NCBI RefSeq assembly: GCF_964213995.1
Contig: NW_027590802.1
Location: forward strand, 62,001 to 126,000
Direction: 5' to 3'
DNA length: 64,000 nucleotides
Source: Mustelus asterias
Taxonomy: Eukaryota
Shown: one piece after another, positions 10,689 through 41,894 of the stretch
Layout of the letters: each line of letters opens with the position of its first letter
Numbering within the stretch: position 1 is the first letter of the stretch
Program-made: the position numbers and the translations under genes
The notes under the pieces: model-generated
Told to the model about the DNA's origin: nothing
Seen by the model: only the letters and a program-made list of their open reading frames with translations
Database searches by the model: none

Positions 10689-10696
10689 TATTTAAA
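10689..10696 (+). promoter_or_regulatory. TATA-like box of the VH gene
   Basis: TATTTAAA about 90-100 nt upstream of the leader ATG. Confidence 0.55.
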
Positions 10697-10787
10697 TGCC
10701 GCTCACTGGGACCGGAATACAACAGTCCGGGAGCTGGTTTGTTCACTGAGTTCCTGACACAACCATTTCCCCTAAATGACCAGAAGG

Positions 10788-10833
10788 ATGAGGTCGACGA
10801 TGTCTCTCAGTTTGTTGCTGACTTTCTTATCCG
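10788..10833 (+). CDS. IGHV: IgH V leader exon (MRSTMSLSLLLTFLS-G); an in-frame upstream ATG at 10776 is an alternative start
   Basis: Hydrophobic signal peptide; phase-1 donor G|GTGAG at 10834; intron 10834-10960 ends TTTGTACAG. Confidence 0.9.
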
Positions 10834-10960: not shown

Positions 10961-11276
10961 GTGTCCAGTCGGAGATTATGTTCGCTCAGCCAAAGGCAGA
11001 GACCGGGCATCCCGGAGGCTCCATGAGACTGACCTGCAAAACCTACGGGTTCAATCTCGGTAACGCTCACATGCACTGGATCCGACAGGTTCCCGGAGAG
11101 GCGCCGGAGTGGTTGGTTTACTACCAAACTTCATCAAGCAACCTGTACGCCCCAGGGATTCAGAATCGATTTACTCCCTCCAAAGACACTTCAACCAACA
11201 TCTTCTCTTTGGCCGTAACTGACCTGAAGACCCAAGGCACCGCCATCTATTACTGTACAGTAGACCATGGGGGTAT
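10961..11276 (+). CDS. IGHV: IgM-type VH exon with germline-joined D ([28 protein letters not shown]...WIRQVPG...RFTPSKDTS...[12 protein letters not shown])
   Basis: Open frame with the canonical Cys, Trp and YYC, and shark IgM VH-like framework. YYC is followed by a G-rich D-like stretch and then a 12-bp RSS instead of a V 23-RSS. Confidence 0.92.
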
Positions 11277-11304
11277 CACAGCATTGACTGCCAATACAAA
11301 AATC
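11277..11304 (+). other. 12-bp-spacer RSS 3' of the fused VD
   Basis: CACAGCA (11277-83), 12 nt TTGACTGCCAAT, ACAAAAATC (11296-11304). Confidence 0.9.
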
Positions 11305-11631: not shown

Positions 11632-11670
11632 GGTTATTGAATCACCCAGCCCAGGGGGTGTAACACAGTG
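11632..11670 (-). other. 23-bp-spacer RSS 5' of JH
   Basis: GGTTATTGA (11632-40), 23 nt, CACAGTG (11664-70), directly abutting the J coding sequence; the nonamer has 2 mismatches to consensus. Confidence 0.85.
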
Positions 11671-14100: not shown

Positions 14101-15985
14101 GACATCCTCACTCACCGTCAGACTCCCTCACCCTCACTCTCACTCACCCTCACTCATGCACTCTCACTCACGCATGCTCACTCACGCACCTTCCCTTGAT
14201 CAACTTCACGCACTCAACTCTCTCATCGTCATTCACCCAACCTAACACACCCACACTCACACACCCTCATTAACTCAGCCTCACTCATCCATCCTCATTC
14301 ACTCACCCTCACATTCACCCTCATTCATGCACCCTCACTCAATCCCTTCATTCAGCCACCATCACTCATCCACCCTCAATCACTCACCTTCACTTACTCA
14401 CCCTCACCCACCCTCAGCTCTCACTCATGTAAACTCACTCACATCCACTTACTCACCCTCACTCGCTCAACCTTACTCATATCACTCACTCACTTTCGCG
14501 TAAACACCCTCACTCACTCACTCATGCACCCTCACACACGAACCCTCACTCTCCCACCCTCGCTCACCCACCCTCACTCAGTCACCCAAACACCCTCATT
14601 CACTCATCCTCACACACCGTAACTCACCCACTCTCACTCGCACCGTATCTCACGCACCCCCCACACATCCACCCTCACACATTCATCCTCATTCAATCCC
14701 TTCACTCAGCCACCATCACTCATTATCCTCACTCATTCACATTCACTCATTCACCTTCACATGTTCAGCTTTACTCACACACGCTCACTTGCTCACACTC
14801 ACTCGCCCACCCACACTCACACATTCACTCACCGGCCCTCGCGCACCTATCCTCAGGTCACGGTCAGACTCCCTCACCCTCACTCATGCAACCTCACTCA
14901 CGCATGCTCATTCACTCACCTTCACTTGCTCAACTTCGTGCACTCAACTTTACTCTCTCATCGTCATTCACCCAACCTAACGCTCCCACAATCACACACC
15001 CTCACACACTCAGCCTCACTCACCCATCCTCATTCACTCATAGAAATCATAGAAACCCTACAATACAGAAAGAGGCCATTCGGCCCATCGAGTCTGCACC
15101 GACCACAATCCCACCCAGGCCCTACCCCCATATCCCAACATATTTACCCACTAATCCCTCTAACGTACACATCTCAGGACACTAAGGGCAATTTTCAGCA
15201 TGGCCAATCAACCTAGCTGGACATCTTTGGACTGTGGGAGGAAACCGCAGCACCTGGAGGAAACCCACGCAGACACGAGGAGAATGTGCAAACTCCACAC
15301 AGGCAGTGACCCAAGCCGGGAATCGAACCCAGGTCCCCGGAGCTGTGAAGCAGCAGTGCTAACCACCGTGCTACCGTGCCGCCCCTCCTCACTCATCCTC
15401 ACTCATTCATCCTCACTCACTCACCGTCGCCCATCCTCTCTCATCCGCTTCAATCAATCATCCTCACTCACACCTTAACTCACCCGACCTCATTCACCCA
15501 TCCTCACTGACTCAAACTTTCACACATGCACCTTCACTCTCTCACCCTCTTGCGCCTCTTCACTAACTCACCCCCTTCACTTACTCACCCTCACTCACCC
15601 TTTCTCACTCTCTCACCCACTCTAACTTGCTTTCAATGAATCCATACCCAACCGCACTCATACTTACTCACACAATATCATTCACTCACCCTCAGCCACT
15701 CACCCTCAGTCATCCACCATTATTCAATCCACAATAATCATACTCCCTAATTTACACACAGTCCCTCACTCATCACCAACACCCTCACACTCACACCATT
15801 GTTCCCCCGCCTTCAATCCCGCATCCTTGCTTGTTCAGCATCATCCTTCCACCCTCAGTGACTCACCATCACCCAGCCACATTCACTCAGCTACAATCAC
15901 TCACTCACCATCAGTCATTCACTCACTGATATTCACTCACTTACTCATTCACTCTGTCACACTCAGCATGCACAATCACTCACCC
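14100..15985. repeat. Degenerate (CACT/CACCCT)n low-complexity tract
   Basis: Almost G-free plus strand; internal duplication 14115-14305 vs 14860-15040. Confidence 0.9.
15040..15384 (-). mobile_element. V-SINE (HE1-like)
   Basis: Reverse complement of the 9712 element. Confidence 0.88.
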
Positions 15986-16941
15986 AGAGAGCCGGGGGAA
16001 AGTGCAGAGTGTCGTGGTAAGGGAAGAGAGCTGGAGAAGAATACCCAGAGCCCTGGTAGTGGACAGAGCGTCATGGGCAATTGCAGAAAGATGAGGGAGA
16101 TCACATAGAGCCAAAGAAGAGGGCAGAGAGCAGTGGGAAAGTGAAGAGAGCCAGGAGTAAGGAGAAAGTGCCAGGCAAAATGCAGAGAACCGGGAGAAAG
16201 GAGAATGTGCCGGGGGGAAGTGCTGACAACCGACAGAATGTGCAGACTGCTGGTTATCGGATTTGGGGATGGAATATGGAGCTACTAGCATAATCGGTTC
16301 ATCCATGATCTTACTGAATGGTGAATGACGTTCAAGGGACTGAATTGCCTACTGTAGCTGTTAAAACATTATCCGAAGATAAGAGAATGTTACAATTGAT
16401 GAATTGCTACTTTATTGAGAGTTTTATGGGCATGATGGAAGGAATAACCCCGACGGTATTATTGAAGAAAATTCACTATTCTGTTTTGTGGAGTGCGGTG
16501 GGCGGGTGGGCAGGGGATTAGTGAGCTGGTGAGAAGAGGGGGCATCAGTCAGTTTGAAAAAAGGCAATTTCCAAACTGCAATGACAAAATAGAAGAGACC
16601 AATTCTTCACCACAACGTGCTGTTGATTGTGAATTAGTCTCTGAAATAATGCAAAAAATCTCTGCTGTTCTCTTTTAATCCAATCAATGTATGTCATTCA
16701 GATAACAGCAGAATGTATTCTTATTATGCCGGGGTAGAAACGGAGAAAGATATGTTAGTTTCTATAGGGGACAATTATTGCAGAAACCTAAACGATAGAA
16801 GTAGTAGAATATCAAATTGAAATTTGAAAACGAAGCTGTGAAGATAGGATCATAATTGTAGTCGAATTATTAATTGCTTGATTACTTATTGAACAGAATA
16901 ACAGAGTGTAATTTGTTCAATCGGTCATTCTGTGCTCGCAG

Positions 16942-17235
16942 CGCCATCTCCGCCTACTCTCTACAGCCTGGTCTCCTGTCAGCAACGCAATTCCGACGGC
17001 TCCATCACCTATGGCTGTTTGGCGATGGGCTACTCTCCAGAAATCACCAGCCTGACCTGGAAGAAAGATGGGCAGCCGATCACCACTCGATTTAAGTCTT
17101 ACCCGTCAGTCAGAAACATGATGGGAACCTCCACCCTGAGCAGCAAGTTAACCATCATTGAGTCAGAGGGAGCATGCAGCAAAATTAACTGTGAGGTTCG
17201 ACACAGCGGATCAGACCAAAGCATTGAAATGCAAT
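16942..17235 (+). CDS. IGHM: Cmu1 constant exon ([15 protein letters not shown]...[24 protein letters not shown]...LSSKLTI...[17 protein letters not shown])
   Basis: C1-set Cys/Trp/Cys pattern resembling shark IgM CH1; acceptor TGCTCGCAG, donor T|GTAAG, phase 1 at both ends. Confidence 0.9.
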
Positions 17236-17425
17236 GTAAGTATTGAGGATCCTGGGAAGAACAGAAACACTGTCATTAAACTGTATAGAGCCTTGGTTAT
17301 AACACAAGCAGTACATTCCTAATTCCAGATTCGTTTTATATTTGAACTCGAATTCCACCATCTGCCGAGGCAGTATTCGGACCTAGTCCCTAGAGCAAGG
17401 ATACATTTACAGATGAAATTGCTAT

Positions 17426-17808
17426 CATAGAGTCATCGAGGTTTACAGCATGGAAACAGGGCCTTCAGCCCAACTTGTCCAAGCCGCCCGTATTTTTTTA
17501 AACCCCTAAGCTAATCCCAATTGCCCGCATTTGGCCCATATCCCTCTATACCCATCGTACCCATGTAACTATCTAAATGCTTTTTAAAAGATAAAATTGT
17601 ACCTGCCTCTACTACTATCTCTGGCAGCTTGTTCCAGATACTCACCACCTTCTGTGTGAAAAAATTGCCCCTCTGGACACTTTTGCATCTCTCCCCTCTG
17701 ACCTTAAACCTATGCCCTCTAGTTTTCGACTCCCCTACCTTTGGGAAAAGATATTGATTATCTAGCTGATCTATGTCTCTTATTATTTTATAGACCTCTA
17801 TAAGATCT
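17426..17808 (-). mobile_element. CR1 3' fragment in the Cmu1-TM intron
   Basis: DLIEVYKI...FFTQKVV..WNKLP and tail. Confidence 0.85.
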
Positions 17809-18793: not shown

Positions 18794-18921
18794 ACTCCAC
18801 AGACCGCATCTGGGTTGAAGACAATGAGGATCATAATTGCAACAGATGGACAACCGCTTCCGCGTTCATCGTCCTAATCTTCCTATGCATTTTCTGCAGC
18901 ATCGCAATCACTCTGTTGAAG
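18794..18921 (+). CDS. IGHM: IgM transmembrane exon TM1 (YSTDRIWVEDNEDHNCNRWTTASAFIVLIFLCIFCSIAITLLK)
   Basis: Acidic spacer, WTTAS.FI.L..L.IF.S..TL.K membrane-Ig TM motif; acceptor CCCCTAG, donor AAG|GTAAG. Confidence 0.9.
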
Positions 18922-19035: not shown

Positions 19036-19044
19036 ATCAAATGA
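19036..19044 (+). CDS. IGHM: TM2 exon (IK-stop; cytoplasmic tail KIK), followed by 3' UTR
   Basis: Polypyrimidine tract, CAG acceptor, then ATC AAA TGA; equivalent to the KVK tail of membrane IgM. Confidence 0.85.
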   Translation: MK

Positions 19045-20789
19045 TGGGCTGAATTTTGGATTCTGTAGTTTTCCCTCAGCTGATTATTAAGATCTCTGTA
19101 TGGCACAAATACAATATCTGCTCTTGGTGATTCGAGGAGTAACATTCCGTCAGTTTACGTTCCGCACTTGTAACTGAGACAAGTGTGGTCGGTATTTCTG
19201 TTTTCCAACTTGAAATTTACGGCTTAATTATAGTTGTAAAATGATTGTATCTTGTAGTTTCCCCTGAATTTAATGTATAAATAAGTACATTTTCTTGAAA
19301 CATATTCACAATTGTTCATTTCCCTTTATCTTGAAGTCCTGTGTTCTTTTTCTGGTGCTTGTTACAATTGTACATATATTGGACGGCTCAGAGCGCAAGT
19401 TTTCTATTCTCAGTGCAAAGTTCAATCTTCATTTTCCCTTTTGTGAGCTTTAAAATAGACTTTTCTGTAAAATGTTCTCTGAAATTTTTATTAAATCTTG
19501 AATGAAAAATGAACAAAATAATCTTCGAGCGAGGATGTAAAATCTCGCCCTAATTCAATGAAAGAATTGCTGCGGCACGCAGCGACCTATGCTGTAAATA
19601 TATCTTTGCCTCTGCCTTTTTATGATAAGCTCCAATGATTGAACAGCGAGAACCTGGATGATTTCGCTTCTAACTGGTCTGTCACTGTCACATGCGAGGT
19701 AATTATGAACAGCACGAACTCTGCTTCATCATAGGCCGATGCAGGGCATTGTGGGAGAAAATAGTTTCCTTTACAATGTCCCACCAAGCACGGCCGGTGT
19801 CGCTGCATCGTGGCTTAACAGAGTGAATCCCTATATTCCCCGATGAAATGCTCACACGAAATGCGTACCGCAGACTAGAACATAACACAAACAGAACAGG
19901 GGTGCAAAACATAAAGTGGCCCAAGTGACTGAGGTGCATTTCACACTAACATATCATCAAATGCAAACTTCCAAATGAAAGGGCCGATGAGAATTACCAG
20001 AGAAAAATACCGATGAAATTCTTGAAACCTGGGGTGTATCTGACACCGTTAAGTGCAAAACGTGGGAATTGTTCCCAGGCTGGGGCCTCACTGATACAGA
20101 GATTCCAGCTTCGCATTTTGTTTAAAATATACAGGCAGATACATTGTTCTCTCACAGTTCAATTAGATAGTGAATGGGTCCACTGTCAAGAAAATACAAT
20201 GGCTGTCTGCTTCCACCATTATGGTTGCAATCACTGCCTTCTGTATCCATGATGCATTTCTCCCTATTCAGCTCCACTTCCTTTCATGCTAACGCCCAGA
20301 ACTCATGAGGATCACTCCAGGGATCCTCTCTCCCTGCTCCATTGTCTCTGATGCCATCTCACTAAACTCACTGAGCAACACCTCAGAGTTGCAGAGCAGT
20401 TCCTTCAACAATTTTTCAGCGATTCCTTCAAAGACTTCCTGTTACAGGAATTTCAGCAAAAAAAAAACTCTGTTGGGATCCCAGTATCTTCCAATGTTTT
20501 CATTCTACTGTGAGGCAATTGATCCTCTGCAGACTTGAGGTGCAGGCATGTGGTTACTTGACGTTTAATATCACAAATTAAAAGGAGGAAAGAATTCAAT
20601 GTGTTTCATTGTCTGTGGGTCTTCAGTCGATGGTAGCATTAATAGGAAGGCAGATTATTAATTGAAATGATCTCAATTGAGAGAGATGGATAATCAGCGA
20701 GACCTTGGTTTCCTCGTGCATCAGTCGCTGAAAATAGGCATGCAGGTACAGCAAGCAGTGAGAAGACAGACTGCATGTCAGACCATCAG

Positions 20790-33338: not shown

Positions 33339-33354
33339 GTGATGATATTTTCAG

Positions 33355-33700
33355 GTCCTTGTGAAGGAGGTTCTGTCACCCAACTGCCCTCATTAGATAT
33401 AAAGAAAGAATGAGATGCAGTGATATTGACCAGTACGTATAATACTGCAGTGAAGAACTATATATCATGCTGGTACCGACAATACCCAGATACACAGCCC
33501 GAGTTTGTATTCTTGAAAAACTCCTGGGATTCTGCGGTCAAAGCATATTTTGCCAAAATCCCTTTCTCTGCTGAGCTCCAGATTGAGAATAAATTTACCA
33601 GATTAACAAGCTCTGGGCTGGAGGTGAATGACTCTGCCTTGCATTACTGTGCTATCAGTCTCACAGTTTTAGCATTCAATCTGATCACCGTACAAGAACT
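33355..33700 (+). pseudogene. TRAV: TCR alpha/delta V pseudogene exon with 23-RSS
   Basis: GPCEGGSVTQ...*DAVILTS(Cys>Ser)...WYRQYPDTQPEF...DSALHYCAIS; in-frame TGA at 33411; RSS CACAGTT-23-ACAAGAACT (33662-33700). Confidence 0.88.
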
Positions 33701-38607: not shown

Positions 38608-38721
38608 GTAATTTTGAATGTAATGCATTTCATATCTTTATCATTTCCCAAACATGGGTAAATTAAATATCAAATAACCACAGTTCATATATTTTCATGT
38701 TTGAATATGTTTTCTTTCCAG

Positions 38722-39030
38722 ATCTATGTCATGCCAATTCTGTCAATCAGATATTCTCCTCGGTCACAAAGACAGAAGGAGAAGCGGTGTCATTACCCTG
38801 TAGCTATGAAACTACGAGGAACAGTTATAGTTCATTCTGGTATAGGCAAAGCTCAGATACACAGCTATCGTATACACTGAGGAAGGACAGCGATGGCGAT
38901 GAATTTAAAGCAGATTTTGCAGAAAATCGTTTCTCTGCAGATCTCCAGACCTCGAAGAAATCCATCAATTTAATCATCTCGGGTCTTCAGTTGACAGACG
39001 CTGCCGTGTATTATTGCGCTTTCTGGAACT
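38722..39030 (+). CDS. TRAV: Apparently functional TCR alpha/delta V exon
   Basis: DLCHANSVNQ...EGEAVSLPCSY...WYRQ...RFSADLQ...LIISGLQLTDAAVYYCAFWN; open frame in phase with the leader. Confidence 0.92.
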
Positions 39031-39069
39031 CACAGTGATAGAAAGCAGGCTCAACCCTGTACAAAAATT
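39031..39069 (+). other. Consensus 23-RSS of the functional TCR V
   Basis: CACAGTG, 23 nt, ACAAAAATT. Confidence 0.93.
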
Positions 39070-41060: not shown

Positions 41061-41548
41061 ATGCAGCTGCTCGGTGTGTGGTTGATGTGGGAAACATTCC
41101 CGACCGGTGAACATATGCAAAAGAAATTTCACCGTTTCTCACTTTTCACAAGCATAGTTCCAGACCACACTTCTTTCAGCCGCCCATCTGAACACTTCCT
41201 GCTTCAATATGTTATCTTTTCAGATGAGTCATGGAGATTATGTCACTCAACCGCTCTCATCTGATGTTGAGAGAGGTGAGATCGTGACTCTAACTTGTAT
41301 CGATCAAACTACAGCGAGCGACTGTAGGATGCACTCGTACCGCCAACATCCCGAAGTGAAGAATCATCCTGATGGTTATGAAGATAAAGCAGATGTTTTC
41401 AAAAGTCGATTCTATGTGGATCTCCAGGCCTCCAACAAATTTATCAGCTTAAATATACTGGACCTGAGCTTGACTGATGCTGCCGTTTATTACTTCGCGT
41501 TAAGACGCACAGAGATAGAAAGAAGAACCACCCTCGTGCACAAAAACT
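41061..41548 (+). pseudogene. TRAV: TCR alpha/delta V pseudogene (leader 41061-41106, V exon 41224-41507, aberrant RSS)
   Basis: Leader splices out of frame with SHGDYVTQ; Trp>Ser (SYRQ); FR2 deletion; YYC>YYF; CACAGAG lies 25 nt from ACAAAAACT. Confidence 0.87.
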
Positions 41549-41894
41549 GTGTTTAAACTGTAGGTATGAACTCATGTCGGTTCGGGATTCCGAAGGCTCA
41601 AAGCCAGATTTTAAGCGAGCTGTCAGCCGCTCTCTGTCTCTCTCTCTCACTCACACACGCACATGCACACAGATACACAGAGGAAACAAAGTTAACCTCA
41701 GATCAAACTGGTGACCGCCTGTTTCCAACAGCGGAGAAAACAAAGTGCAGAATCCAATTTGGCAAATAGATCCAGCAAAGGACTACTTTACTCATTCTGC
41801 TCTAAGGCAATAATCATGCCATTCTCGTTGTATTGTTCGACCAGTAGAATGTCCGGAAGCGAATGAATGGAAATACCTCGAGCTGCGATAGAGT

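Follow-up and report, generated by a model that had tools for sequence, protein, structure and literature searches.

The window, the whole 64,000-nucleotide stretch of Mustelus asterias DNA that was analyzed (G000:C770:62001-126000 in assembly coordinates), contains a gene that, as judged from its sequence, is a shark IgM minicluster consisting of a leader, a germline-joined V-D, a J, Cmu1, TM1 and TM2. The positions of its parts and of the V exons found downstream are collected in Table 1.

Table 1. Features of the IgM gene and its neighborhood, in window positions
Feature	Position	Strand	Evidence or remark
TATA-like element, VH promoter	10689..10697	+	alignment to ordinary IgM cluster G000:C123
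Leader exon	10776..10833	+	open frame, GT donor
IgM VH exon, germline-joined to D	10961..11276	+	open; canonical Cys/Trp retained
12-spacer RSS, D2 type, directly 3' of V-D	11277..11304	+	sequence
23-spacer RSS of JH	11632..11670	-	CAC intact, nonamer non-consensus
JH segment	11671..11718	+	WGQG, GT donor
Cmu1 exon	16942..17235	+	open frame
Foreign piece, 119-bp flank and SINE-like repeat	17307..17771	+	copy of a sequence located at another site of the Ig region
TM1 exon, acidic spacer and TM, 128 nt	18794..18921	+	canonical acceptor, GTAAG donor
TM2 exon, 9 nt, Ile-Lys-stop	19036..19044	+	sequence
ATTAAA, likely polyadenylation signal	19490..19495	+	same position as the ordinary cluster's AATAAA
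Two decayed TCR-type V exons	33353-33700, 41220-41550	+	stop codon or missing canonical Cys; internally deleted
TCR alpha/delta-type V exon with leader	38720-39069	+	open frame, good 23-RSS

In an alignment, the proximal promoter is almost the same as that of the ordinary cluster G000:C123. A VH and a D that are already joined, and a JH, lie upstream of Cmu1 with 12/23 RSSs, the arrangement of a minicluster. The assembly has further clusters in which V-D-D or V-D is joined in the germline and which carry a 12-RSS, on C597, C105, C87 and C71 (L054, L055, L056 and L057). Both V and Cmu1 match named IgM heavy chains of nurse shark, catsharks and houndsharks: the VH protein is 66% and 59% identical to nurse shark IgM H chains, and Cmu1, an ortholog of shark IgM C1 with 98 places in the assembly, is 74-82% identical to it in most of the named matches. 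The cysteines of Cmu1 at 17016 and 17190 are the domain pair, that at 16977 is the predicted link to the L chain, and that at 17175 is an EF-loop Cys. All retained exons are open with GT/AG ends, and none of the stops, frameshifts or lost splice or RSS signals that mark a pseudogene was found in them. Protein database searches returned two matches for V, nine longer proteins for Cmu1 and none for TM1; a V-Cmu1-TM chain was not found in these searches, a weak negative given the few shark chains in the database.

Two features of V depart from the usual form. First, codon 11236 encodes Gly, and the conserved Asp before YYC, which is present in 11/11 other V exons fetched and in 2/2 named chains, is gone. 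Second, FR2 at 11092-11112 reads GEAPEW instead of the usual GQGLEW, a change common to the related copies C447 and C160. This site belongs to the VH-VL interface, at positions that are altered in single-domain V and there resemble light-chain or TCR V; light-chain pairing may be weakened or altered. The intron between J and Cmu1 contains a long CA/CT-rich low-complexity stretch (14200-16100) that is conserved in the same two copies.

Downstream of the gene, window positions 20000-64000 carry many decayed LINE fragments encoding reverse transcriptase/endonuclease, presumably CR1-like, whose longest open frame is of about 980 codons (28885-25946, reverse strand). No D, J or C for the intact TCR alpha/delta-type V exon was found on the contig with Ig/TCR V queries, and near-identical copies of this exon adjoin all five sister IgM clusters described below. 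The minicluster thus has both IgH clusters and V exons of TCR type as neighbors, as described for the elasmobranch antigen receptor complex (PMC12227049).

The distance between Cmu1 and TM1 is 1.85 kb in the window compared to 6.6-12.5 kb in 88 others, and the window is the sole short case among the 89 of 98 Cmu1 places that have a TM exon within 30 kb. Cmu2-4 were not found on the 171-kb contig, and the gene does not have the organization of four domains and a secretory tail. In their place lies the foreign piece, which shares 96% identity across 501 bp with C88:1571389 and C108:304182 and replaces about 5.25 kb; in sister copies this interval holds Cmu2, Cmu3, Cmu4 and the secretory tail. 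Its left join is non-homologous and its right join lies inside the SINE-like repeat (17425-17807). Comparison with the sisters, together with the short spacing, identifies the loss of Cmu2-4, which the original prediction had presumed, as a genomic deletion. With these exons and the secretory tail deleted, the gene can encode no more than a single-C-domain membrane form. The foreign piece has diverged by 3% from its donor, compared to 4% for the window from its sisters, and the deletion is therefore old enough for the cysteine changes described below to have followed it.

The TM1 exon reads as originally reported, with a CS motif, a second TM Cys and a Cys in the spacer, encoded by TGC codons at 18838 (spacer, position -2), 18886 (S15C) and 18895 (Y18C). 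The numbering comes from alignment to the mouse and human mIgM chains in BCR cryo-EM entries 8e4c, 8ema and 7xt6 and follows the position scheme of PMC9860311 and PMC11300204. In this register, W2, A5, F8, L11, F17, S19, T23 and K26 agree with mouse and human mIgM, and the differences are L1R, T7A, F12I, S15C, Y18C and T20I, of which L1R (18844), T7A and F12I (18877) are common to the sister copies.

A census of the assembly gave 124 TM exon matches, 120 of them on Ig-bearing contigs. The 70 exons fetched, the best 30 and 40 spanning the lower score classes, encode 37 distinct peptides. A Cys at -2, 15 or 18 occurs in the window only (0/69 others), and the same residues are thus absent from ordinary four-domain IgM clusters, where their presence would have spoken against a change particular to this gene. 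Ser15 is kept in every other fetched exon that aligns there (one exon is frameshifted) and Tyr18 in all others except one with Asp, in agreement with the claim that both substitutions fall on conserved polar positions. Genome-wide, the pattern W-T-T-A-S..F-C-S of the Y18C form was found at one place, the window. The spacer codon is AGC in ordinary clusters, GGC in sisters and TGC in the window, and by outgroup comparison, S15C and Y18C arose on the window side. Single Cys gains were seen in 8/36 other distinct TM peptides. As a separate observation, 31 of the 120 TM exons on Ig-bearing contigs are without a listed Cmu1 (IgW/IgNAR, orphans or unscored); the exons at G000:C123:556111 and at C173:318526 and 326538 have no listed upstream Cmu1, and some lie near another TM exon.

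Work on the mouse receptor offers a basis for predicting the effect of these changes. The mIgM TM homodimer relies on S15-S15, S19-S19 and Y18-T23 contacts, the combination of S15A and Y18F nearly abolishes CD79 assembly, and intramembrane crosslinks required copper-phenanthroline, with L1C, A5C and S19C as the assembly-competent substitutions (PMC9860311). A deep mutational scan of surface expression showed that Y18 tolerates only F or W and F12 only Y, that S15 is fairly tolerant and that Arg/Lys is unfavorable at the N-terminal edge of the TM (PMC11300204). CD79a is present in sharks (PMC4034164). Of the CD79-associating set F8, L11, F12, S15, Y18, S19 and T23, the window chain keeps F8, L11, S19 and T23 and has F12I, S15C and Y18C. 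Going by the mouse mutagenesis, CD79 assembly is predicted to be lost in this chain because of Y18C and F12I; S15C and L1R are further changes. The original expectation of a lost or changed CD79 association is therefore in line with the loss or weakening predicted from the mouse TM mutants (PMC11300204, PMC9860311), and F12I, which changes a key CD79A contact, and L1R can be added to the residues it had listed. Its description of the Tyr/Ser pair as the coupler to CD79 needs amending: Y18 does touch CD79A, but S15, Y18 and S19 are mainly the heavy-chain homodimer interface, and S19 is retained. The statement that the TM has no basic residue and that CD3 assembly is not predicted is borne out, as positions 2-25 have no Lys or Arg; an Arg is present at position 1. 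Between positions 7 and 25, polar Ser, Thr and Tyr residues drop from 6 to 2 and the mean hydropathy rises from 2.16 to 3.02.

The spacer Cys lies three residues before the TM Trp and, if the helix continued, about 160 degrees off the dimer face; it is predicted to be luminal and could be oxidized. A second unpaired Cys may exist in the same chain. The last base of the Cmu1 exon contributes to a Cys codon when spliced to Cmu2 and to a Tyr codon when spliced to TM1, the junction codon being T plus GT in sisters and T plus AC in the window. The EF-loop Cys and the junction Cys likely pair, since they co-occur in 10/11 named shark IgM C1 domains and are both missing in the eleventh. Since the junction residue becomes Tyr on splicing to TM1, Cys 17175 would be orphaned; we infer that it is either a rival partner of the spacer Cys or a free thiol favoring retention. 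Given the off-face position, the closeness to the TM Trp and the rival intrachain partner, the suggestion that the spacer Cys replaces the heavy-chain dimerization lost with Cmu2-4 is not supported.

Five sister copies (C447, C160, C444, C88 and C71) have a TM1 98% identical to that of the window. Cmu2-3 are kept in all five, and Cmu4 was checked in C447 and C71. Each sister is broken. A 48-bp deletion has removed the TM1 donor in all five, the first V Cys is lost in C447 and C160, V-J is lost and Cmu1 damaged in C71, C444 and C88, and Cmu4 carries stops in the two sisters examined for it. Only in the window copy are all splice sites, the canonical cysteines of V and C1 and a polyA-like signal still in place. 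C770 is collinear with C71:8.25-8.39 Mb, with flanks mostly 97-99.7% identical and the IgM part 94-96% identical, and is therefore either allelic to it or a recently duplicated copy, within a mosaic of segments that have undergone conversion. F12I and L1R are common to the four-domain sisters, so decay of the TM predates both the cysteine changes and the deletion. In the sister TM1 exons themselves (L002-L006), the 48-bp deletion leads to an in-frame read into the intron with a short basic tail and a stop, and the anchor is still open.

The coding changes on the window side, with branches assigned by hand and two ambiguous codons excluded, number 14 nonsynonymous to 2-3 synonymous, compared to a neutral synonymous share of 0.27 (P = 0.16-0.29). 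Where both sister types could be compared, the window-side ratio is 8 to 1, and the broken sister C447 has 7 nonsynonymous and 5 synonymous changes. The window gene thus has no signal of purifying selection and no significant nonsynonymous excess; none of the tests reached significance, and the small counts fit neutrality or positive selection. The probability of staying stop-free over 14 substitutions is 0.54. The term "remodelled", which the original prediction had applied to the TM exon and which implies selection, finds no purifying selection in the gene to support it.

The cysteines can be set against several estimates of chance. Compared to the five sisters, TM1 of the window has 3 differences in 114 coding nucleotides, and all 3 lead to TGC. 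With local transition bias included, a substitution produces Cys with a probability of 0.034, and the chance that 3/3 changes on the window branch do so is 4e-5; the chance that 3 go to any one residue is 1.7e-3. A laxer count against ordinary IgM finds 3 Cys among 11 changes, for which the empirical rate of Cys gain (8 of 224 changes) gives P = 0.006, and by this count 0.1 such exons are expected among the 37 distinct peptides. Among all 17 window-side coding changes, at least 3 Cys have P = 0.019. The number of TM1 changes, 3, is close to the neutral expectation of 3.4. The trio is unusual, yet not beyond chance given the number of drifting copies.

The explanation we consider most probable is that the window copy is a drifting, signaling-dead relic of an IgM gene, and since such a copy likely drifts without selection, the three cysteines are probably neutral changes in an anchor for which CD79 assembly is predicted to have failed already. 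A genomic replacement has stripped Cmu2-4 and the secretory tail from a duplicated IgM minicluster. One VD-to-J recombination and transcription would then give a V-Cmu1-spacer-TM chain, which with a light chain would form a single membrane-tethered Fab. F12I, Y18C and S15C would break the contacts of the mIg TM dimer and of CD79A, and the chain with its unpaired cysteines would face ER retention and degradation, or would arrive at the surface without signaling. A B cell receiving no receptor signal from this chain would turn to another of about 100 IgM clusters, and because the cell moves on, the gene would be invisible to selection. This account is supported by the neutral number of TM1 changes, the lack of a purifying signal, the lost Asp before YYC, the breakage of 5/5 sisters and the greater age of F12I and L1R relative to the cysteines. 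Against it stand the 3/3 changes to Cys in the sole copy of 89 without Cmu2-4, the position of two of them on the homodimer face, the retention of all splice sites and a deletion old enough to have preceded the cysteines, and an excess of nonsynonymous changes could also mean positive selection. If the gene is a relic, it provides a clean example of birth and death in shark IgM clusters with a resolved, repeat-mediated loss of Fc exons, and cautions that function does not necessarily follow from open frames and striking residues.

Of the alternatives, a selected new receptor survives best, although we regard it as unlikely. It proposes that, after loss of the Fc, the cysteines covalently dimerize the chain into a short, CD79-independent, membrane-only molecule resembling F(ab')2. 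Its details are to be taken just as tentatively: the spacer Cys would form its bond in the ER lumen, possibly helped by packing or acylation of Cys15 and Cys18. The same doubt attaches to its output, in which the more hydrophobic TM would bring the chain to the surface for antigen binding without signaling or with another adaptor. This reading is sustained by the 3/3 result in the sole Fc-less copy, none of the other 88 clusters having lost Cmu2-4; positions 15 and 18 belong to the dimer interface, the TM has become less polar and all signals of the gene are intact. Spacer cysteines also form links in mammalian membrane IgG, IgE and IgA. A precedent for the predicted chain exists in the zebrafish VDJ-Cmu1-TM1-TM2 transcript (PMC5192425). 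However, V and Cmu1 show no purifying selection and an invariant Asp is gone, the hydrophobic shift of the TM is mostly common to the dead sisters, the gene exists in one copy, a continued helix would turn position -2 away from the dimer face, and the TM Cys crosslinks of the mouse chain formed only with an oxidant. It is accordingly a rather doubtful proposition that a shark IgM cluster has here become a rearranging, TCR-shaped, Cys-dimerized, CD79-free receptor, non-signaling or differently coupled, and a new class inside the Ig/TCR complex.

An intrachain repair is improbable. In this scheme, the spacer Cys would pair with the orphaned EF-loop Cys of Cmu1, which would do away with a free thiol and let a monomeric membrane Fab fold. 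The joint occurrence and joint absence of the EF-loop and junction cysteines and the altered junction codon are as it would require, and the new Cys lies 15 residues past the junction. However, the native pairing is deduced from co-occurrence with one loss only, Cys15 and Cys18 would be unexplained, and Cmu1 would be pulled hard onto the membrane.

An assembly or consensus artefact, with two loci joined within the SINE-like repeat or base errors in the Cys codons, is also improbable. The right junction falls within a repeat of high copy number, the allele is on one contig only, and the Cys codons did not turn up in any read contig; over the TM exon, contigs of runs X1, X2, X5 and X6 carry sister-type and ordinary sequences only, and as minority variants drop out of such contigs, they are neutral on the Cys codons and give no evidence of orthologs. 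On the other hand, the left junction (17277-17450) is present with 1 difference on a contig of run X1, whose short side of 30 letters is 1 below the bridging threshold. Contigs from two samples carry window-type Cmu1, showing 1-3 differences compared to at least 8 expected for sisters, and one of these two samples may be the source of the assembly. In addition, over several kb the TM side is about 4% diverged from every sister, there is no other window-type Cmu1 to own it, and the three substitutions are separate with none in a homopolymer. A contig of run X2 over 17307-17450 was rejected as support for the junction, as its first 29 letters are unmatched and it is better read as the donor locus.

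A TCR-like chain, in which the spacer Cys would pair with TCR gamma or beta for signaling through CD3, is very improbable. In its favor, the V-C-stalk-Cys-TM topology resembles that of a TCR chain, V exons of TCR alpha/delta type are found 14-22 kb downstream, and the TM cores of mIg and TCR superimpose (PMC9860311). Against it, positions 9 and 14 of mIg, equivalent to R253 and K258 of TCR alpha, are not basic, the C domain is a Cmu1 with an L-chain Cys and not a TCR constant domain, and the D/J order of TCR delta does not fit a 12-RSS after V-D. Moreover, the presence of TCR-type V exons between IgH clusters is a general property of this region (PMC12227049).

Compared to known systems, the window gene shows both likenesses and differences. 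First, it is like the VD-J germline-joined shark IgM miniclusters in its leader, VH, D2-type 12-RSS, 23-RSS JH, Cmu1 and TM1/TM2 (PMC4279169, PMC5192425), and unlike them in its lack of Cmu2-4 and a secretory tail, the changes at F12, S15 and Y18 and the gained spacer Cys. Second, nurse shark IgM1gj is likewise a germline-joined IgM subclass that has lost a C domain (PMC5192425, PMC4279169), but as described there only Cmu2 is missing, VDJ joining is complete, and the secreted molecule is abundant in neonates, whereas the window gene has lost three domains and the secretory tail. Third, the zebrafish transcript has the same predicted order with one C domain (PMC5192425); it arises by alternative splicing of an intact gene, while the window owes its form to a genomic deletion and has an altered TM. 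Fourth, relative to mouse and human membrane IgM, the window chain is without Fc domains for dimerization or CD79 contact. Finally, it shares a V-C-stalk-TM topology and a stalk Cys with TCR alpha/delta chains, and differs from them in its Ig V, Cmu1, absence of a basic TM residue and a Cys only three residues before the TM Trp, where the connecting-peptide Cys of TCR chains is further out; going by its domains, it is not a TCR chain and, if it works at all, would work like a membrane-tethered Fab. A genomically fixed shark IgM with one C domain in a membrane form was not found in the literature searched, which covered few subscription papers.

If expressed, the product would be a naturally occurring IgM of Fab size, confined to the membrane, in which Cys occupies the two positions underlying the BCR TM core. 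It would allow heavy-chain dimerization and surface arrival to be tested in a setting free of Fc domains and CD79, and would serve as a living model for the transition between an Ig heavy chain and a receptor of TCR shape. As a further observation on the gene, read-through of the Cmu1 donor (17232-17246) would add Cys-Lys-Tyr before a stop, giving a soluble V-Cmu1 fragment with a Cys near its end, and sister C447 is alike in this respect.
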